A program made the position numbers and the translations under genes. From Escherichia coli (lineage in GTDB: Bacteria; Pseudomonadota; Gammaproteobacteria; Enterobacterales; Enterobacteriaceae): a DNA stretch of 64,000 nt. The DNA lies in assembly GCF_965641715.1 (NCBI RefSeq), contig NZ_OZ282453.1. One strand, written 5' to 3'. The number at the start of each line of letters is the position of its first letter. Positions within the stretch are counted from its first letter, which is position 1. The notes under the pieces were generated by a model that did not search any database, was not told the DNA's origin, and saw only the letters and a list, made by a program, of their open reading frames with translations. Shown one piece after another: positions 3,724-52,550 of this stretch.

Positions 3724-4023
3724 TTACGGACAATAGACATTTTTCAGGGTGGCGATAATGGCATTTACCGCCTCATTTTTAATGGAATATAGAATGCGTT
3801 GGGCATCCCGTTGGCTGTCGATAAGCCCTTCGTCCCGCATACGAGCGAGATGCTGTGATGTCGCAGAGGCACTCAGTCCGGTAATGCGCGTCAGCTCTCC
3901 CGCGCTGGTGCCGGGGGAACCGCTAAGCATGCACAGAATCAGCAATCGTTTAGGGTGGCTCATTGCTTTCAATAAGGCCGCTGCCTGTTCAGCACTGGCC
4001 TGTAATTGCGTGAGTTCGGTCAT
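3724..4023 (-). CDS. ygaV: YgaV ArsR/SmtB-family HTH transcriptional regulator
   Basis: 99 aa ORF MTELTQLQASAEQAAALLKAMSHPKRLLILCMLSGSPGTSAGELTRITGLSASATSQHLARMRDEGLI...; forms an operon with ygaP. Confidence 0.9.
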   Translation of the reverse strand: MTELTQLQASAEQAAALLKAMSHPKRLLILCMLSGSPGTSAGELTRITGLSASATSQHLARMRDEGLIDSQRDAQRILYSIKNEAVNAIIATLKNVYCP

Positions 4024-4205
4024 AGTTATTTAAGTATTTTCTAAATTAAGTAAACTCTAAACTAAAAATGCAACATATACCAGCCTCAGCAGCGTAAATG
4101 AGAGTAAAAGCGTAAGCTGAAACTGGCAGCCTCCGCTAAAATTACTACGCTTAAGAGATAAAATCTCTTTTTAAACAATGAGTAATTTTCTTATAGGGAG
4201 TACAT

Positions 4206-23538: not shown

Positions 23539-23901
23539 TGGTGGAGCTGGCGGGAGTTGAACCCGCGTCCGAAATTCCTACATCCTCGGTACTACATGCT
23601 TAGTCAGTCTTTACATTCGCTTGCCAGCTGCGGACGGACACGCCACTAACAAACTAGCCTGATTAAGTTTTAACGCTTCAACCCCAGGCAGGGCTTCCAC
23701 GCGATCTCTTTTGGGTTTGACCTCTCTTGATCCCCGTCCTAAGAGCGGAGGCTAGGGAGAGAGGGCTCTAAGCAGGTTATTAAGCTGCTAAAGCGTAGTT
23801 TTCGTCGTTTGCGACTATTTTTTGCGGCTTTTTACGAGGCCAACCGCCCCTCGGCATGCACCTTGGGTTTCGCAAATCCCGTCGAATCCAGAATCAGCCC
23901 C
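23539..23901 (-). ncRNA. ssrA: tmRNA (SsrA), 363 nt
   Basis: Reverse complement matches the recalled E. coli tmRNA from 5' GGGGCUGAUUCUGGAUUCGACGGG... through the tag-encoding region to the 3' ...GGUUCAACUCCCGCCAGCUCCACCA. Confidence 0.97.
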
Positions 23902-41638: not shown

Positions 41639-41661
41639 AGTGTTGCCTTTTTGTTATCAAT

Positions 41662-41688
41662 AAAAAAGGCCCCCCGATTTGGGAGGCC
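41662..41688 (-). terminator. pheA attenuator terminator
   Basis: Minus-strand hairpin GGCCTCCC-AAATC-GGGGGGCC followed by TTTTTT, between pheL and pheA. Confidence 0.85.
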
Positions 41689-41736
41689 TTATTGTTCGTC
41701 TTCGCATTCTGTTTCATACGACGAAACGCCTCCCAT

Positions 41737-41784
41737 TCAGGGGAAGGTAAAAAAGAATGCGAAGAAAAACGGTGTGTGTTTCAT
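41737..41784 (-). CDS. pheL: pheA leader peptide (Phe-rich), 15 aa
   Basis: Manual translation of the minus strand gives MKHTPFFFAFFFTFP-stop with seven Phe codons, classic attenuation leader. Confidence 0.9.
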   Translation of the reverse strand: MKHTPFFFAFFFTFP

Positions 41785-41840
41785 GTTTGTTTCCTTAAGT
41801 GACTTTAGTACAGTACCCGTACTGTTTTCACGCTGTCAAC

Positions 41841-41951: not shown

Positions 41952-42974
41952 TTATGTGGATGAAATGTGGATGCCTCCTTTTAACGGATTAAGTGAAATT
42001 GCATCCTGGAGGAAATCAGGAGCGAGGTGCGCATAGGTCATAGTTTGCTGGATCGTGGCGTGCCCCATAATTCGCTGGAGCGTAAGTATATTTCCTCCAT
42101 TAATCATAAAGTGAGCTGCAAAGGTATGGCGTAGAACATGTACTGCCTGCCCTTTTGGTAGATCAGGTTTAACACTGCGAAGCACCTTGCGATATTCCTC
42201 ATAATTGACGTCAAACAAAAGGCCGGATTTCTTTGTTTTGATCTCGCTAACAACTTCATCAGAGACAGGAATAATTCGAACTTTTCCGTTTTTAGTTTTG
42301 TTAAACGTCACGCGGTTATTGATGATGTGTTCCGCGCGCAGATTTTTCGCTTCTCCCCATCTCGCACCAGTACTGAGACAAAGTAGCGTAATCCGCCGGG
42401 CATCACCGCTTACTGCATCCAGTAATTTGGCAATTTCTTCCGTGGTGAGATACGTCATTTCGGGTGATTTTCGTTTCAAAGAGGGGAGGGCGCGGAGCGG
42501 ATTTTCTCCGTGAAATTCCCCGGCATTTGCCAGGAGTGTAAACATTCCTCCGAGATCCGACTCATCACGCCGAACAGTAGACTCTTTTACTCCCAAAGAT
42601 AAACGGGAGCTTCGATAAGCGGCCATGAAACGAGCATTAATCTGGCTAACCCTTGGATCATTCATTTCTTTGATGATTTTTTTCAACCTGGTTAGAACGC
42701 CGTTAGCATATGGCTTATTGCGTCCACCCAATTCCCACCATAACGGAAGCAGATCTGAGAGATGACGTTGCTCTGTTGGCTTTTCAAGCCATTCCTTATC
42801 GTGCATGTGGCTGAGAACATAACGCTCAAAGGCCACTGCATCTGCCTTTTTCTTAAAAATCCGCTGAATCCGACGTCCACTTCGGCCACGCGGTCTAACA
42901 TCCACTTTATACCGTCCACCATCGAGTGCTTTAATTGCCATTGGCAAGCCCTCCGGTGAAACGAGGAAAGACAT
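41952..42974 (-). CDS. int: P2-type tyrosine integrase
   Basis: 340 aa ORF; ...RLKAEHIINNRVTFNKTKNGKVRIIPVSDEV...HVLRHTFAAHFMINGGNILTLQRIMGHATIQQTMTYAHLAPDFLQDAISLNPL closely resembles P2 Int as recalled (catalytic R...HxxR...Y). Confidence 0.93.
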   Translation of the reverse strand: MSFLVSPEGLPMAIKALDGGRYKVDVRPRGRSGRRIQRIFKKKADAVAFERYVLSHMHDKEWLEKPTEQRHLSDLLPLWWELGGRNKPYANGVLTRLKKIIKEMNDPRVSQINARFMAAYRSSRLSLGVKESTVRRDESDLGGMFTLLANAGEFHGENPLRALPSLKRKSPEMTYLTTEEIAKLLDAVSGDARRITLLCLSTGARWGEAKNLRAEHIINNRVTFNKTKNGKVRIIPVSDEVVSEIKTKKSGLLFDVNYEEYRKVLRSVKPDLPKGQAVHVLRHTFAAHFMINGGNILTLQRIMGHATIQQTMTYAHLAPDFLQDAISLNPLKGGIHISST

Positions 42975-46049: not shown

Positions 46050-46371
46050 GAAACCAGAGCATGCACACACAAAAAAACCGCTTGCCATGCCGCAATCAGT
46101 CAGGTTACATTTTCGCTGCACCTCATAAAACGGGTGCCGGGTTTCGCAGCCTGCTGACAACCAAAGCGCACAACCGCGCCAGCGGTTTTTTTGTGCGTAC
46201 TGTATTGCCACGTTTTTTTCGCGTCAGAATTATGGCGGGGCGTACGGGGCCGACTTCGGTCGGGCCGGGTTCTTTGGTTGCCGGTACTGCGAACCCCGTA
46301 CGTCTCGCCACCCACAGTTTCGCAGCTCTGGATGGTGAGTTTTCAAAACTTACAACCAAAGAGGCCACACC

Positions 46372-46602
46372 ATGGCAAACCGCAAACAGCACCGCGCTAT
46401 CGCGGAGCGTCGTCACATCCAGACTGAAATCAACCGCAGACTTTCCCGCGCATTCCGCGTCGCTAAAATCATGCACATCAATATGCTGCATGAGCGTAGC
46501 TGCGAACTTTCAAACCTCTACTCATCCGCTGTTTTCAGCTATCTGGCGGATGATCTGCGCGAGCTTCAACAGCTCATCCAGCAGCAAAACAAACTCCATT
46601 AA
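46372..46602 (+). CDS. Hypothetical prophage early protein (76 aa)
   Basis: ORF with AGAGG RBS; protein-like composition, unlike the overlapping 205-aa ORF in another frame. Confidence 0.5.
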   Translation: MANRKQHRAIAERRHIQTEINRRLSRAFRVAKIMHINMLHERSCELSNLYSSAVFSYLADDLRELQQLIQQQNKLH

Positions 46603-46674
46603 TTCCTGTTCCGGGCCTTTCCTGCACCTTGCGGCGGGAGGCCTTCGCACATCTGTAACAAGAGGATTGCCGCA

Positions 46675-47040
46675 ATGATTCTCGCCAACGACTTTCTTGA
46701 ATACCTGCTCAACACAGAGCGTGATCTTGCCGCTCGCGTACGTGATCGTTATGACATGTATCTGAAATCCCTGCCTGTACCGCAGCTCGCTGACGGAAAG
46801 ATTGTTATTGATGGTCGCTACATGATTGACAGCCACGAGGGAAATTACAGGCTTTACCGCATTGAAGGTGGCACCCCGTCCGTTATTGGCATTTACCAGC
46901 GCCCATCCTCTGCAATCGTCGATGTGATTGCCGACAGCATCCGCATCACACATCGCCATGCCGACACAGAAGACACCGTGCTGGAAATTCAGCGGCTGGC
47001 TGCCGTCTGCCGCGACACCCTGAATGGCATGACGAAGTAA
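46675..47040 (+). CDS. Hypothetical prophage early protein (121 aa), immediately upstream of replication gene A
   Basis: ORF with GAGGA RBS; occupies the position of P2 early/replication accessory genes. Confidence 0.55.
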   Translation: MILANDFLEYLLNTERDLAARVRDRYDMYLKSLPVPQLADGKIVIDGRYMIDSHEGNYRLYRIEGGTPSVIGIYQRPSSAIVDVIADSIRITHRHADTEDTVLEIQRLAAVCRDTLNGMTK

Positions 47041-47046
47041 ATCACT

Positions 47047-49869
47047 ATGACGGCAGAGTACATCAGGGACTGGCAACAACCGCGCCACGCAGTGGGACGT
47101 GAAGGAACGGGGATCCCCGTTCCTGAATCCGCGCTTTCCTCCTGGCTGGATGCCTACCGGGCAGAGAACGAGCGCCGCCAGGAAATGGCTGATGCGGCGT
47201 TCTCCGCCACGCCGCTGGGCAACCTGATTAATAAAAGCCTGGATGCACAGGAAAAACAGGACAAAACCATCACACTGGCAGGAGACGCCAGAAAACAGGT
47301 ACGCGGTGCGGTGGATGAAGCCATGGCCTCGCTGCGCCTGCTGCCGTCCTATCTGCGCGATCCGCTTATTCGCCACCTCTCCTTCCTGCGCAAAAAACAG
47401 GAAGCCGATCGCCGGAAAGGCAAAAAGAGCTGGCAGGCTGAACGCTACGCGCGCGGAACCCTGCGCAAAATATTCGAACGTCTGGACCGCACCGACCACC
47501 GCTGGCTGACACCGGGTTATCGCTCCCTTGCCGGACGCGAACGCCTGGATGATTTGCTTTACCTGCCGCAGCTCAACAAGCACCAGATACAGACGCTGGC
47601 CACCATGACGGCGGCGATGTTCAGCAGCACCTTCGAAAAACTCTGCGATGGCTTTGGCGCGACTGATGGCGAGCTGACCATGGATGTAACGCTGAAGGCG
47701 TATCAGATGCTGGCCCGCATGGCGTTACACCTGCACGCCATGCCTCCGCATTATGATGCACTGACAACAGACAAAGACCGGAGGAACGAACCGGACACGG
47801 AGCTGCTGCCGGGCGCAATCCTTCGCCTGACCTGTGCGGAATGGTGGAAACGCAAACTGTGGCTGTTACGTTGCGAGTGGCGGGAAGAACAACTCCGCGC
47901 CGCCTGTCTGGTTTCCAGAAAAACATCGCCCTATCTGAGCCAGGACGCGTTAAGCGAGTTTCGCGCACAGCGCGAGAAAACACGCGATTTCCTGAAAAGT
48001 TTCATGCTGGAAAACGAAGACGGGTTCACGATTGATCTCGAGACGGTGTATTACGCGGGAGTAAGTAACCCGGTTCATCGTAAGGCAGAAATGATGGCCA
48101 CCATGAAGGGGCTGGAACTTCTGGCCGAAGCCCGTGGCGACAAAGCGGTGTTTCTGACTGTCACCTGCCCGTCAAAATACCACGCCACAACAGAGAACGG
48201 TCATCCGAATCCCAAATGGAACGGGGCCACCATGCGCGACTCCAGCGATTACCTGGTTAACACGTTTTTTGCGGCGGTCCGCAAGAAACTGAACCGCGAC
48301 GGCCTGCGCTGGTATGGCATCCGCACGGTGGAGCCTCACCATGACGGCACCGTGCACTGGCATATGATGGTCTTTGCTCATCCGGAAGAAATCGACACCA
48401 TTGTGTCCCACACCCGCGATATTGCCATTCAGGAAGATCGTCACGAGCTGGGTGATGATATTACCCCACGCTTTAAGGCGGAGTACGTCGACGGCTCAAA
48501 AGGCACACCGACCAGCTACATCGCCACCTACATCGGGAAAAACCTGGACAGCCGTGCCGTGGATGGCATCGACCCGAAAACGGGCAAGCCACGCGTTGAC
48601 CACGAAACCGGAAAATCAATGGCCGAGAGCGTGGAACGCGCCATCGGCTGGGCGCGCCTTCATCGGGTCCGCCAGTTCCAGTTCTTTGGCATCCCCTCCC
48701 GTCAGGTGTGGCGTGAACTGCGCCGCCTTGCCAGCCAGATGGCTCGCAACCCGGAAGGACCGCAACGGCTGAAGGATGACGCAATGGACGCGGTTCTTGC
48801 TGCCGCTGATGCCGGATGTTTTGCCACCTACATAGAGAAACAGGGCGGCGTACTTGTTCCACGCAAGGACTACCTGATTCGCACCGCCTACGACCTCGCA
48901 GATGAGCTGAACGATTACGGTGAACAGAGCGTACAGATTTACGGGATCTGGTCACCGCTCATCGGGGAGTCTTCCCGCGTATGCACGCATCCGGACAACT
49001 GGAAGCTGGTAAGACGCAAACCGGAAGCGGAAGACAGCGCCCGCGAAAATGGTTTTGACCTTCAGGGCGGCCCTGCCGCCCCTTGGACTCGTGGCAATAA
49101 CTGTCCCCGTGTACAGGAAACAGGCAACAGCGGGACAGAACAGTCGAAAGAACGGCCAGCACCGTGGCCGCAGCTTCCTGACGGCGTTGACGTGAACGAA
49201 TGGATGCGCTCACTGAAACGGCACGAACGCCGGGCGCTGATGCGTTCGCTTCGTGACAAACAGGCAAAAAACAGCAGTGATGAAATGCAGAGCTGGACAC
49301 AGAGCCGCAAACAGCCACGGCCTTTGCCTGATAACCACGAATTACTCGCTAAAGAATGGCGGGAGTCTGCTGAATCTCTCGGCCTGCATATCGGTGAACA
49401 ACAGATGCAGCACCTGTTACGGGGCGGCAGTCTGTACGTTGACGGCAGCATCATTGCACCGCAGGGATTTGAAATTGTACGCAAACCGGATACCCGCCCG
49501 GACAGCCGAATCACGCAGCTCTGGCAGCGCCTGAGCCGTAATCATGGCGTAAGCAGCACGGAGATCCGCCATAACCCGGTCGCCAGCTATCTGGCACAGC
49601 TGGGGGCATCAGACCCTGAAGCCGCCGCACGCCTGGCATCCACACTTCAGCAGGACCAGAACACCATGAAAACACCCGTTACCGTGCTTTCTGACATGCT
49701 GCGCGCCATCCGCGACGCAGAGCACGCACAGAGAATCAGTGAAACCACTGAACGCGCCAGCCGCAAAGCAGACCTGCTGCGGGGTGGCCTGACCAGTGGA
49801 AACAAAAAACAGACAGAAACGGGATTCACAAATCCCATAAATGAGCAAAAAACGTGCCGCGATATATGA
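47047..49869 (+). CDS. P2 gpA-like rolling-circle replication initiator endonuclease (940 aa)
   Basis: HUH-type motif region ...GIRTVEPHHDGTVHWHMMVFAHPEE...; position after the early ORFs matches P2 gene A; unusually long C-terminal region. Confidence 0.85.
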   Translation: MTAEYIRDWQQPRHAVGREGTGIPVPESALSSWLDAYRAENERRQEMADAAFSATPLGNLINKSLDAQEKQDKTITLAGDARKQVRGAVDEAMASLRLLPSYLRDPLIRHLSFLRKKQEADRRKGKKSWQAERYARGTLRKIFERLDRTDHRWLTPGYRSLAGRERLDDLLYLPQLNKHQIQTLATMTAAMFSSTFEKLCDGFGATDGELTMDVTLKAYQMLARMALHLHAMPPHYDALTTDKDRRNEPDTELLPGAILRLTCAEWWKRKLWLLRCEWREEQLRAACLVSRKTSPYLSQDALSEFRAQREKTRDFLKSFMLENEDGFTIDLETVYYAGVSNPVHRKAEMMATMKGLELLAEARGDKAVFLTVTCPSKYHATTENGHPNPKWNGATMRDSSDYLVNTFFAAVRKKLNRDGLRWYGIRTVEPHHDGTVHWHMMVFAHPEEIDTIVSHTRDIAIQEDRHELGDDITPRFKAEYVDGSKGTPTSYIATYIGKNLDSRAVDGIDPKTGKPRVDHETGKSMAESVERAIGWARLHRVRQFQFFGIPSRQVWRELRRLASQMARNPEGPQRLKDDAMDAVLAAADAGCFATYIEKQGGVLVPRKDYLIRTAYDLADELNDYGEQSVQIYGIWSPLIGESSRVCTHPDNWKLVRRKPEAEDSARENGFDLQGGPAAPWTRGNNCPRVQETGNSGTEQSKERPAPWPQLPDGVDVNEWMRSLKRHERRALMRSLRDKQAKNSSDEMQSWTQSRKQPRPLPDNHELLAKEWRESAESLGLHIGEQQMQHLLRGGSLYVDGSIIAPQGFEIVRKPDTRPDSRITQLWQRLSRNHGVSSTEIRHNPVASYLAQLGASDPEAAARLASTLQQDQNTMKTPVTVLSDMLRAIRDAEHAQRISETTERASRKADLLRGGLTSGNKKQTETGFTNPINEQKTCRDI

Positions 49870-49945
49870 AGCGCGCACAAAACAGGCAAAAGCGGGATTT
49901 AAAAATCCTGTAAACGATTAATTAATCAACATAAGGAAAAGCGAC

Positions 49946-50905
49946 ATGAAAATTTGTATCGACGACGGCTCCACCAACATCAAGCTGGCATGGACTGAGA
50001 ACGGCGAACGCCGCAACGCCATCAGCCCGAACAGCTTCAAGTCGGAATGGTCTGCGCCGTTCGGTGGCTCGCAGCCCGCGAACTACATGCTTGATGGCGT
50101 GCGCTATGGTTTTGATCCGGTCAGCGATCGCTTTGTCCAGACGACCGACACGCAATACCAGTACAGCGATGTGAATGTCATTGCCATTCATCACGCGCTG
50201 GTCAAATCAGGCATCACGCCACAGGAGGTGGATGTGGTTGTCACCCTGCCATTGAGCGAGTATTTCGACACAAACGCACAGCCGGACATGGCCAACATCA
50301 GCCGCAAAAAAGCGAACGTTATGCGCCCGGTGGAGTACCAGAACGGCGAAACATTCACTATCCGTAACGTACGGGTTATGCCTGAATCCATTCCGGCTGG
50401 CTTTAAAGCACTGGCTGACATGAGTCCGCTTGAATCCCTGCTGATTGTGGATTTGGGCGGAACCACACTGGATGTGGCAAAGGTTCAGGGGCAACTGGCA
50501 GGTATCAGCCAGGTGTTTTGCGATCCACACGTAGGCGTTTCCCTGATGGCCGATGCCGTACTGTCGGTGATGGCCACTAACGGTATGCGTATCAGTCACC
50601 ACATCGCCAATACCATTATCGAACATCGCCATGATGAAGCCTGGTTGCGCCAGCACATCCACAATGACGCGCATTACGCCAGCCTGATGGCGGTTATTCG
50701 TGAAAAGGAAGAAACACTGAAACAACGCGTGATCCGCGCGCTGGCGGTTTTTTCGGGTTACGGGCGGGTGATGGTTGTCGGTGGCGGGGCGGAGATTGTG
50801 GCACCCGCTATCCGCGAAGCCTGCGGAGTTAATGCGACTTTCATCGCGGACGGGGTGCCACAGTTTGCTCTGGTTAATGGGCTGTACGCAATGGACAAGG
50901 AGTAA
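49946..50905 (+). CDS. ParM/StbA-like actin-fold ATPase (319 aa)
   Basis: N-terminus MKICIDDGSTNIKLAWTE...ISPNSFKSEW...YQYSDVNVIAIHHALVKSGI...LIVDLGGTTLDVA... matches the recalled plasmid R1 ParM phosphate-1/connect/phosphate-2 motifs; strong RBS. Confidence 0.8.
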   Translation: MKICIDDGSTNIKLAWTENGERRNAISPNSFKSEWSAPFGGSQPANYMLDGVRYGFDPVSDRFVQTTDTQYQYSDVNVIAIHHALVKSGITPQEVDVVVTLPLSEYFDTNAQPDMANISRKKANVMRPVEYQNGETFTIRNVRVMPESIPAGFKALADMSPLESLLIVDLGGTTLDVAKVQGQLAGISQVFCDPHVGVSLMADAVLSVMATNGMRISHHIANTIIEHRHDEAWLRQHIHNDAHYASLMAVIREKEETLKQRVIRALAVFSGYGRVMVVGGGAEIVAPAIREACGVNATFIADGVPQFALVNGLYAMDKE

Positions 50906-50909
50906 ACCA

Positions 50910-51221
50910 ATGACGACTCCAACCAGACGGATAAGTTTCTATCTGAAGCCCGCCGCCGTCAAGAACGAAGGTGAAGCATGCGCCTGGCTGGACAGCCTTA
51001 CACCAGAAGCGCGCAAAAGCGGCCAACGCGTGGCTTTTCTGGCCGGGCTGGCACTTCTGAAAATGAATCCGGCAGAGGCTTACCGACTGGCTGCATGGGC
51101 TGATGATGAAGCGTTATCAGTGACACAAACCAGGACAGAACGCCCCGCGTCACAGCCAGTATCAACCGCACAGATAACCAGTCAGATGGCCGGAAATATC
51201 CGGGCGTTATTTCCCGAATAA
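50910..51221 (+). CDS. ParR-like small DNA-binding protein (103 aa), partner of the ParM-like ATPase
   Basis: ORF 50775-51221 with probable start MTTPTRRISFYLKPAAV...; RRISFYLKP...RVAFLAGLALLKMNP...NIRALFPE parallels recalled R1 ParR (RRTIAFKLNP...RAALTAGLALYRQDP...ILRSLFPKE); 4-nt gap after parM-like gene. Confidence 0.7.
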   Translation: MTTPTRRISFYLKPAAVKNEGEACAWLDSLTPEARKSGQRVAFLAGLALLKMNPAEAYRLAAWADDEALSVTQTRTERPASQPVSTAQITSQMAGNIRALFPE

Positions 51222-51284
51222 CACAACATCAGGGCGCATCCGCCCTGATGACTTTAACCCGGGAACATAAACAAGGGGGACACA

Positions 51285-51620
51285 ATGCAACGCATTGACA
51301 GAGAAAAAGCGCAGCGACTGATTGAGCGGATGGAAGCGCTGGCGAAAGAAGAAAATGTCAACATCCAAAAAATAGCTGAATGTGGCCAGATAGTTCTTCG
51401 TCGTGAAAAAGACCTCAAACAACTGATGTCTGGCGAAACCAGCAAAACATGGACTTCAGGTGAGGAGACGATTTATTGCAGCTTCTGCAATAAATCCCAG
51501 TACGAAGTCACAAAGGTGATTGCCGGACCGTCTGTTTACATCTGCAATGAGTGCGTTGATTTGTGCAATGAAGTTATCAGGAGAGAAGTGACAGACCATG
51601 AAGAAAAAACGCATGAATGA
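51285..51620 (+). CDS. Small protein with C-terminal ClpX-type C4 zinc-binding domain (111 aa)
   Basis: [40 protein letters not shown] is near-identical in pattern to the ClpX N-terminal ZBD ([39 protein letters not shown] as recalled); N-terminal 60 aa predicted helical; own AAGGGGGA RBS. Confidence 0.8.
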
Positions 51621-51786: not shown

Positions 51787-52194
51787 TTAAATATAATCTT
51801 CTTCGTAGTCGCTGATTAATTCATTGCCATAATCAGACAGCAATTTCAAAGCAAAGGTAACTTCCTCAAGGGTAGCTATCCCCATTGCTGAAAACACCGT
51901 TAATTTAACCAGCAGCAGGGAGTTTGAAAGTTCGGAAGAGTTCATCATTAAAAATATTGATGCAGCCTGAAAAGCTGTGCGTTTATTCCCATCATGAAAG
52001 GCATGAGCCTTGGCTATACCAATCAAATACATAGCAGCCAGAGCATGAATATCATCAACCCCTTCATAGTAGTGTAGTGTCCTGACGCGATTTAAAGCAC
52101 CTTCAAGTAGCCCGTCATTGGCATTTCCGCTCTGGGGTAAAGTTTCAGCATGGATACGTTCTACTTGTTCTTTTGACAAAAACACTATGTCCAT
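51787..52194 (-). CDS. Doc-like (Fic/Doc family) toxin
   Basis: 135 aa ORF with Doc-type Fic motif HAFHDGNKRTA (HxFx[D/N]GNKR); start overlaps stop of upstream antitoxin-like gene. Confidence 0.8.
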   Translation of the reverse strand: MDIVFLSKEQVERIHAETLPQSGNANDGLLEGALNRVRTLHYYEGVDDIHALAAMYLIGIAKAHAFHDGNKRTAFQAASIFLMMNSSELSNSLLLVKLTVFSAMGIATLEEVTFALKLLSDYGNELISDYEEDYI

Positions 52195-52550
52195 CAGTTA
52201 TCCTCAAGCTTTTTAATGATATCCGCATGTTTTTCTCTTGTACGCTTCATTGCATCTTCAAAAGACAATCCTTTTTTTCTCTGTGCGACAAGAGCTGGAT
52301 GACGTTTTTCCAGATCTCTCACTGCATTTATTAAGAGTGGTTGCTTCATTTTGTTTATTTGATCCCGCAGTTTTTTGGTTTTGCCAAGGACAGCCCGTAT
52401 TTCAGGACTAAGATCAGAACCAGCAAGAACAACATCCTTCCCTCCCTGCGCCGTGATAACGACACTGCCACCGGAAGAAAGGTAATCCAGAATTTCACTC
52501 AGGTTCTCACGAAATTCATCATCAGTTACAGTTTTCATATTCATTTCCAT
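52194..52550 (-). CDS. Phd/YefM-like antitoxin with extended C-terminal region (118 aa; start ambiguous among three ATGs)
   Basis: N-terminal MKTVTDDEFRENLSEILDYLSSGGSVVITAQGGKDVVLAGSDL resembles the Phd/YefM fold; basic C-terminal 60 aa; overlaps doc-like gene (ATGA arrangement). Confidence 0.7.
   Translation of the reverse strand: MEMNMKTVTDDEFRENLSEILDYLSSGGSVVITAQGGKDVVLAGSDLSPEIRAVLGKTKKLRDQINKMKQPLLINAVRDLEKRHPALVAQRKKGLSFEDAMKRTREKHADIIKKLEDN

Follow-up and report, generated by a model that had tools for sequence, protein, structure and literature searches.

Why should the replication initiator of an integrated P2-like phage run to 940 amino acids (aa), when the A proteins of P2 and 186 have 761 and 694, respectively? 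The question is raised by gene A of an Escherichia coli prophage lying in a 64,000-nucleotide (nt) stretch of contig NZ_OZ282453.1 (assembly GCF_965641715.1), which was analysed as a whole and is called the window here. A sequence-only reading of this DNA had described the protein as unusually long. The comparisons presented here indicate that the product is very probably a standard GpA replication initiator of a P88-like prophage (Xuanwuvirus, Peduoviridae) with a modular gene build, and its 940-aa length arises because the gene combines a variable N-terminus with a long tail behind the internal origin of replication (ori). In addition, the 3' end of the gene was found to belong to the cargo hotspot that P2-like phages carry between gpA and gpQ.

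As a protein, the product of gene A is ordinary; it is already known and is annotated with the routine label 'replication endonuclease'. The open reading frame (ORF) is uninterrupted over its 940 aa. The Phage_GPA family (PF05840) matches residues 179-503 over the full length of the profile, with 438.1 bits against a Pfam cut-off of 31.4, and PHROG 91, described as 'nicking at origin of replication', spans residues 4-940 with an E value of 3.7e-275. The HUH motif and the tyrosines Y491 and Y495 are invariant across 14 aligned A proteins (P2, 186, fiAA91-ss, P88 and ten more). The HUH rolling-circle region recognised from the letters alone was thereby confirmed, both by the domain score and by the HWH triad at residues 437-439 with the tyrosine pair. 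The gene and its catalytic features are given below, with dN/dS standing for the ratio of nonsynonymous to synonymous substitution rates.

47047..49869, plus strand: gene A, GpA-family HUH rolling-circle replication initiator, 940 aa plus stop codon (ORF; Pfam PF05840; PHROG 91; P88 A 98% identical).
47581..48555, plus strand: Phage_GPA catalytic domain, residues 179-503 (Pfam match; the core, residues 171-686, has dN/dS of 0.05-0.18).
48355..48363, plus strand: HUH motif H437-W-H439, with EPHHDG just before it at 48331-48348 (invariant alignment columns).
48517..48531, plus strand: catalytic tyrosine pair Y491-x3-Y495, YIATY at residues 491-495 within YIATYIGKN at 491-499 (invariant columns; aligns with YIAKY of P2 A).

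Within its own lineage, 940 aa is the usual length, and the description of the protein as unusually long was therefore not upheld. The A protein of phage P88 (YP_009113059, 'replication endonuclease') also has 940 aa and is 98% identical to that of the window, the DNA being 96.7% identical over 46068-51617, and the same length and identity are found in vB_EcoM-569R5, PhiR44_2 and Citrobacter PhiSM. All four phages share the flanks of the window, with a 121-aa gene upstream and parM-parR downstream, as well as the same internal ori core. The window gene differs from the P88-type A genes by point differences only, and the sequence just 3' of its ori core is a variant private to the window. Protein clusters at 940-946 aa hold 707, 203, 16,881 and 3,025 members, more than 20,000 sequences together. 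Of 5,426 complete E. coli genomes, 1,577 were matched by a 1-kb probe with the ori at its centre, and 1,355 of these, or 25% of all the genomes, have the full P88-type stretch; when placed, 1,774 probe matches were chromosomal versus only 2 plasmid-borne. Across the Peduoviridae, A lengths range from 694 (186) and 708 aa (PSP3) through 761 (P2), 765 (fiAA91-ss) and 804 (Kapieceevirus) to 925 (Yersinia Firavirus) and 940 aa (P88). The excess noted earlier is real when measured from P2 (+179 aa) or 186 (+246 aa). P88 can be induced and forms plaques (PMC5285337), and Citrobacter PhiSM is spontaneously active (PMC6456863). Because both of these active phages carry the long tail, the long form of A is functional.

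The position of the extra residues was established through the origin. The alignment with the P2 and 186 A proteins that the sequence-only reading had proposed was carried out, and both are collinear with the window protein as far as an NNC peptide, with the catalytic motifs invariant and 31-34% identity; each has PF05840, the HUH motif, the Y-x3-Y pair and an in-gene ori nick core at equivalent codons. The annotated nick sites of P2 (NC_001895:29892) and 186 lie within gene A and encode ...AAPRSPVNNC..., and their window counterpart is AAPWTRGNNC (residues 677-686), with the DNA core GGACTCGTGGCAATAACTGT at 49075-49111. A search for the exact P2 ori 21-mer, allowing up to 3 mismatches, gave no match, and the ori was located instead by protein-guided alignment, in which the P2 nick maps to ~49084/49085.

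49077..49111, plus strand: ori core, 35 bp inside gene A, encoding AAPWTRGNNCP (residues 677-687), with the predicted nick at ~49084/49085 (aligns with the P2 and 186 nick sites).

P2 A acts in cis through Tyr450 and Tyr454 and requires the host Rep helicase. By analogy with it, GpA of the window would nick one strand at the ori core of its own gene, near 49085, through the HUH/Tyr491-Tyr495 centre and so start rolling-circle replication; both the nicking at this position and the priming are proposed here on the strength of that homology. The part that ends with the NNC peptide measures 686 aa in the window protein, 626 in P2 A and 617 in 186 A, and the tail that follows has 254, 135 and 77 aa, respectively. 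Thus, the assignment of the excess over P2 to a long C-terminal region was right for 119 aa behind the ori, but the excess is not a single block, since 60 aa lie before the ori, mostly as insertions at residues ~20-75 and ~120-130.

When related A proteins were compared segment by segment, the modules were found to have separate histories. Proteins whose core (residues 171-686) is 95-100% identical to that of the window have tails that are either ~90-100% identical, or 17-62% identical, or unalignable. Conversely, two proteins (P0124 and P0123) have a Kapieceevirus-like core that is just 50% identical, together with a tail that is 93-99% identical. The locus encoding the first of them (L011) has early genes of the 186 type (CI, CII-like, Fil, DUF2732, TraR and Dam). 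From position 49077, within the ori core, it matches the window at 96% identity, and the match extends over the tail, the repeats, parM and the greater part of parR. Identity to the Hafnia and Salmonella loci peaks at the ori core (95-98%), and a Klebsiella phage (L006) shares only the island 49077-49111 (35 bp, 97%), its flanks being at most 70% identical. Partial matches to the 1-kb probe in E. coli genomes all end at 49107-49112, and some genomes share the core island alone.

The type of tail and the genes behind it are linked. A parM-parR pair stands downstream of the P88-type tail in the window, in P88, in L011 and in the Salmonella (L016) and Hafnia (L017) loci, and the tail is contiguous with parM in 1,286 genomes. 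The pair is absent downstream in L009, L012, L018, L006, P2, 186 and PSP3, where other tails adjoin other genes. The gpA-gpQ interval is a cargo and defence hotspot of P2-like phages with rapid cargo swapping (Rousset et al. 2022, PMC9122126; 2026 preprint 10.64898/2026.02.27.708500), in which roughly one P2-like phage in four was reported to carry a putative plasmid partition system (Rousset et al. 2022, PMC9122126), a figure that agrees with the 1,286-1,355 of 5,426 genomes counted here. From the loss of homology between phage lineages exactly at the 3' edge of the ori core, and from the tail of L011, it follows that the 3' end of gene A belongs to this hotspot. Both of those studies bound it by whole genes ('between gpA and gpQ'), whereas here the left junctions lie inside gene A. 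No border inside gene A was found in the text of PMC9122126 or of the 2026 preprint, the two sources compared.

A likely mechanism would account for this arrangement. Selection for new cargo would fix recombinants whose left crossover fell in the nearest identical stretch, which between diverged P2-like lineages would be the ori core and among P88-type phages also the end of the terminal helix at 49783-49805. Crossovers would land at the ori core because it is the last near-identical stretch between diverged lineages, and the tail, lying between such a left crossover and the cargo, would be carried along. The catalytic body, residues ~102-686, is the conserved part of the gene, with the N-terminal segment 1-101 and the post-ori tail 687-940 as its exchangeable flanks.

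The N-terminal flank was recognised in four loci (L009, L012, L019 and L020), in which homology to the window is lost at ~46695 and returns at exactly 47350; these carry instead a 129-aa gene and an A N-terminus that is ~50% identical. Residues 1-170 are ~95% or ~50% identical among proteins with a 95-100% identical core, and the N-terminus and the tail switch independently of each other. The upstream 121-aa gene (PHROG 3237) and the first 101 codons of A constitute a second exchangeable block, 46675-47349, which suggests that the A N-terminus and the small upstream protein are co-adapted.

47047..47349, plus strand: N-terminal variable module, residues 1-101, swapped together with the upstream 121-aa gene at 46675-47040 (homology breaks in L009, L012, L019 and L020).

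What the tail itself contains was approached by structure prediction, by substitution rates and by database searches, from which three parts ahead of the extreme end were distinguished.

49105..49356, plus strand: linker behind the ori, residues 687-770, disordered in part; a conserved amphipathic helix lies around RHERRAL at 49219-49239 (AlphaFold model; dN/dS; charge count).
49357..49656, plus strand: conserved C-terminal domain (CTD), residues ~771-870, with an LLRGG motif at 49414-49428 (predicted local distance difference test score, pLDDT, 87; dN/dS 0.03-0.14).
49675..49782, plus strand: terminal helix, residues ~877-912, end of the intrinsic P88-type A module (structure prediction; conservation; L020 junction).

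The linker, whose helix has the sequence WMRSLKRHERRALMRSLR, is under relaxed constraint (dN/dS 0.29-0.68), and so is the terminal helix (0.33-1.0), which every E. coli length variant conserves and which can still be recognised in Hafnia; the end of the protein gave values of 0.45-1.0. The CTD, on the other hand, is clearly kept under strong purifying selection, with dN/dS of 0.14 versus both the Salmonella and the Hafnia orthologues and 0.03 versus L011, comparable to the 0.05-0.18 of the catalytic core. Its predicted fold consists of two helices, a three-stranded sheet and more helices, and it reached its pLDDT of 87 when modelled alone. P2 A keeps the CTD helices and the 'ALARGATVNYDG' strand, whereas window A has the full domain; only the first part is found in P2 and Kapieceevirus A, and almost none in 186 A. 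The C-terminal region had also been called rich in charged residues, which the counts contradict: D, E, K and R amount to 28.2% of residues 700-940 and 28.6% of the whole protein, with the linker (687-770) alone mildly enriched at 34.5% and the folded domain at 21%.

The domain prediction proposed for this region, when run, yielded no named family and no PDB relative. The tail has no named domain in Pfam, NCBIfam or PHROGs, where the PHROG matches are whole-protein families; the full A protein gave 0 matches at E <= 1 against PDB sequences; and for the CTD no relative was found in Pfam, NCBIfam or PDB, and no known family or fold was recognised. An exhaustive HMMER search with residues 694-940 over 1.84 billion representatives returned only 26 proteins, among which the useful matches are further GpA-family proteins and fragments that carry the CTD C-terminally, always after the ori peptide (e.g., P0152, 841 aa, with Phage_GPA). 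A word-indexed search with residues 782-940 retrieved fragments of the same E. coli protein only. A 2,998-aa cadherin/RTX protein (P0151), with 14 matches of one 40-residue stretch, was judged a repeat or low-complexity coincidence and set aside.

The last codons of the gene have a different character, and residues 913-940 are not conserved as protein sequence. Among variants of A that are 95-97% identical elsewhere, frameshifts and indels give divergent ends at lengths of 910, 916, 925, 927, 933, 940, 943 or 946 aa. In strain 2014EL-1345-2 (L019), a different A gene of 877 aa has its own stop and is followed ~400 nt later by the same parMRC DNA, in which homology to the window begins at 49805, at repeat 1. 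In strain CAVP819 (L020), a P88-type A is laid out identically up to 49783 and then meets unrelated cargo (AAA ATPase, S8 peptidase), its ORF stopping 15 codons into that cargo at 927 aa and the terminal helix being kept without parMR. In Hafnia the A stop codon falls within palindrome 1 (GGGATTCATGAATCCC). These three ends establish that the P88-type A module ends near residue 912 without a stop codon of its own, and for lack of one the A frame of the window stays open over 28 more codons, across parC-like repeat 1. The overlap of the gene's 3' end with this repeat, pointed out from the sequence alone, is therefore genuine, repeat 1 lying inside the ORF. An assignment of the whole terminal 70 aa to the parMRC cassette was considered and ruled out by L020, with its helix but no parMR, and by L019, where the cassette starts from 49805; only the last ~28 codons qualify. 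In L019 a 66-nt pseudogene before parM (4000-4065 of the locus, NZ_CP024223.1 77676-77741) was called by the NCBI annotation pipeline (PGAP) as 'DNA replication protein, missing N-terminus'; it is not a decayed gene but parC-like repeat DNA, which in P88-type phages happens to be read as the last part of A, and such a call is likely a recurrent annotation artefact.

49783..49869, plus strand: last 28 codons plus stop (residues 913-940), A frame running into the left end of the parMRC cassette (indel and frameshift variants; L019, L020; Hafnia).
49803..49844, plus strand: parC-like repeat 1, 42 nt, containing the palindrome GGGATTCACAAATCCC, within the A ORF (direct-repeat search; kept in Salmonella and Hafnia).
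49876..49917, plus strand: parC-like repeat 2, 42 nt, with the palindrome GGGATTTAAAAATCC, between the A stop and parM (direct-repeat search; kept in Salmonella and Hafnia).
49946..50905, plus strand: parM, actin-like segregation ATPase, 319 aa (PF06406, StbA_N, E 4e-82; PF21523, ParM C-terminal domain, E 3.5e-68; dN/dS 0.04-0.16).
50910..51221, plus strand: parR, Plasmid_stab_B adaptor, 103 aa from the ATG at 50910 (PF10784, E 4e-24; PHROG 2515).

The palindromes of the repeats are conserved across three genera. The ParMRC system of plasmid R1 likewise has a ParM with both Pfam domains, a ParR-type adaptor and direct repeats upstream of parM. Its parC consists of ten 11-bp iterons, whereas the window has two 42-nt palindromic repeats as a putative parC, in the setting of an integrated prophage and with ~65% DNA identity to plasmid parM confined to the coding region; when the last 210 nt of gene A were searched against plasmids, matches were limited to the parM coding region, at ~65%. 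A simple scan of 49000-50100 found no consensus sigma-70 promoter. The 9-mer AAACAGRCA occurs four times on the plus strand of the window (49118, 49258, 49807 and 49880), all within 770 bp, where 1.1 copies would be expected window-wide. The copies at +173, +722 and +795 from the ori core are kept in P88-type phages, and the ori-proximal copy (49118) is specific to the window; these are possibly extra binding sites for ParR or A, or a matter of composition. The idea that a parC-like motif is duplicated beside the ori was downgraded, the copy at 49118 not being conserved in P88.

How the mosaics were made can be explained in more than one way. It is unlikely, though conceivable, that A itself produced them, by an HUH-catalysed transfer of strands between the origins of two phages replicating together and not by homologous recombination. 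HUH relaxases and Pre/Mob proteins are known for RecA-independent recombination at nick sites (PMC5714925), and the junctions lie -8 to +24 nt from the predicted nick; however, both partners have the same 35-bp core, so that a crossover point inside it is not resolvable, and the junctions at 49783-49805, 47350 and 51216 lie away from any nick site, which shows that ordinary recombination is active in the region. Another explanation, which appears rather unlikely, is that the CTD confers specificity for an origin binding site in the manner of pT181 RepC, with the cognate site in the tail-coding DNA past the nick and with domain and site inherited together; this would explain why the breaks of viable recombinants fall at the 3' edge of the ori core. 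Rolling-circle initiators do use a conserved nick site and a separate binding site (review PMC5714925), the nick core is identical across lineages with DNA and protein diverging directly downstream, and all AAACAGRCA copies of the window fall within 49118-49888. Among known initiators, pT181-family RepC and phiX174 protein A also have the origin within their own gene and a conserved nick site beside a more variable region, and the two-tyrosine arrangement of phiX174 A is that of window A (PMC5714925). RepC differs in belonging to the Rep_trans family and in having its specificity mapped to a 6-residue segment, whereas any such role for the window tail is only hypothetical. Against a binding-site domain stand the ori-proximal AAACAGRCA, which is not conserved even in P88; the composition of the CTD, which is not basic (net charge about -1) and in which no DNA-binding fold was recognised; and 186, which functions with almost no tail. 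Hitch-hiking with selected cargo gives the same pattern with no added assumption. A broader proposal, to which we give no more than an outside chance, is that the ori in gene A serves as a dedicated exchange point, at which nicking-joining by the initiator, or strong selection on a matched tail and DNA site, replaces all that lies 3' of the nick. If true, the swapped block would consist of the CTD, as a specificity or docking domain, and the adjacent defence or partition cargo, and would pass between P2-like phages that are otherwise unrelated; on this view, the P2 cargo hotspot would be a recombination system coupled to replication and driven by the initiator, and the CTD would represent a new family of origin-associated domains.

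With regard to the function of the tail, the best proposal, a tentative one, is that the CTD may have an accessory docking role, keeping the initiator attached, once it has nicked, to DNA that flanks the origin or to a protein of the host replisome. Catalysis does not depend on the domain, given that a post-ori tail of just 77 aa is enough for 186 A to work. The sequence-only reading had suggested an extra domain such as a helicase-loading module; a folded domain of ~100 aa is indeed predicted, but a helicase loader standing in for P2 gpB is improbable. In its favour, a gpB homologue is undetectable anywhere in the window and purifying selection on the CTD means that the domain does something. 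Yet no part of A, tail included, is similar to gpB, the tail lacks a Pfam, NCBIfam or PDB match, and the phages 186 and PSP3 are also without gpB and have the shortest A proteins, while Yersinia phage vB_YenM_42.18 has gpB together with a 925-aa A, so that A length does not track gpB absence. That the terminal helix or tail couples replication to segregation by contact with ParR or ParM seems very improbable. Finally, a long ORF produced by error, whether through a sequencing or annotation fusion with the downstream gene or as a decaying pseudogene, can practically be dismissed. Its one true element is the last 28 codons, which are read-through into cassette DNA and variable in frame. The erroneous fusion that the sequence-only reading had allowed for is contradicted by a frame intact in more than 20,000 database sequences, in the 1,355 complete genomes and in viable phages; the dN/dS of the CTD and an order of ori, linker and CTD common to other GpA lineages speak in the same direction. 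For residues 1-912, an artefact is refuted by conservation.

Some considerations weigh against the preferred reading, that of a standard initiator whose tail is exchanged together with the cargo. The link between tail and cargo draws on about a dozen loci and two population probes, and it is not absolute, as seen in L019 and L020. Homologous recombination at the core and strand transfer catalysed by the initiator are inseparable in these data. A specific role of the CTD is without support from any fold or family match; the structure models were built on only 17 sequences, and dN/dS is noisy for segments of 45-100 codons, with Hafnia values near saturation. Older work on the variable region (Nilsson 2004, Odegrip 2006) may already describe part of what is reported here.

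The surroundings of gene A are those of a P2-family prophage, with the gene order integrase (41952-42974), cox-type early genes, A, parM, parR, portal, terminase, capsid and tail. A Phe leader at 41660-41785 adjoins the integrase and may mark the attachment site. Upstream of gene A by ~730 nt, and just before an ORF for a 76-aa 'derepression protein' (46372-46602), Rfam models identify isrK at 46118-46192 (plus strand, 65.9 bits) and a C4 antisense RNA at 46228-46315 (plus strand, 87.1 bits), both above their gathering scores; this region looks like a c4-antirepressor control element of the P1/P7 type in a P2-family prophage. Behind parR, the cargo comprises a ClpX-type C4 zinc-finger ORF (51285-51620, PF06689) and two minus-strand ORFs (51787-52194 and a small one at 52194-52550); in L012, a stretch 99% identical to this cargo is called Fic (PF02661) with a weak PhdYeFM antitoxin. 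A complete P88-like genome with integrase, A and parMR is filed as a circular 34.5-kb 'plasmid' of an E. coli strain from a cat (NZ_CP148288.1, L015, 1-34461) and is one of the 2 plasmid-borne places mentioned above; it could be an excised or episomal state permitted by parMR, or induced phage DNA in the assembly. Elsewhere in the window, a low-GC island at 13000-18000 (35-39% GC) contains tRNA-Met at 15668-15743, and the transfer-messenger RNA gene ssrA lies at 23539-23901 on the minus strand.

Although the protein itself is ordinary, three minor points may help those who work on P2-like phages. The missing stop codon accounts for the length polymorphism of 910-946 aa and for the small 'replication protein' pseudogene remnants of PGAP annotations. 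A domain of ~100 aa that is strongly selected and absent from Pfam, NCBIfam and PDB forms the C-terminal part of some GpA initiators. Furthermore, with the left border of the hotspot placed within gene A, a delimitation by whole genes misses ~250 codons that are swapped together with the cargo.

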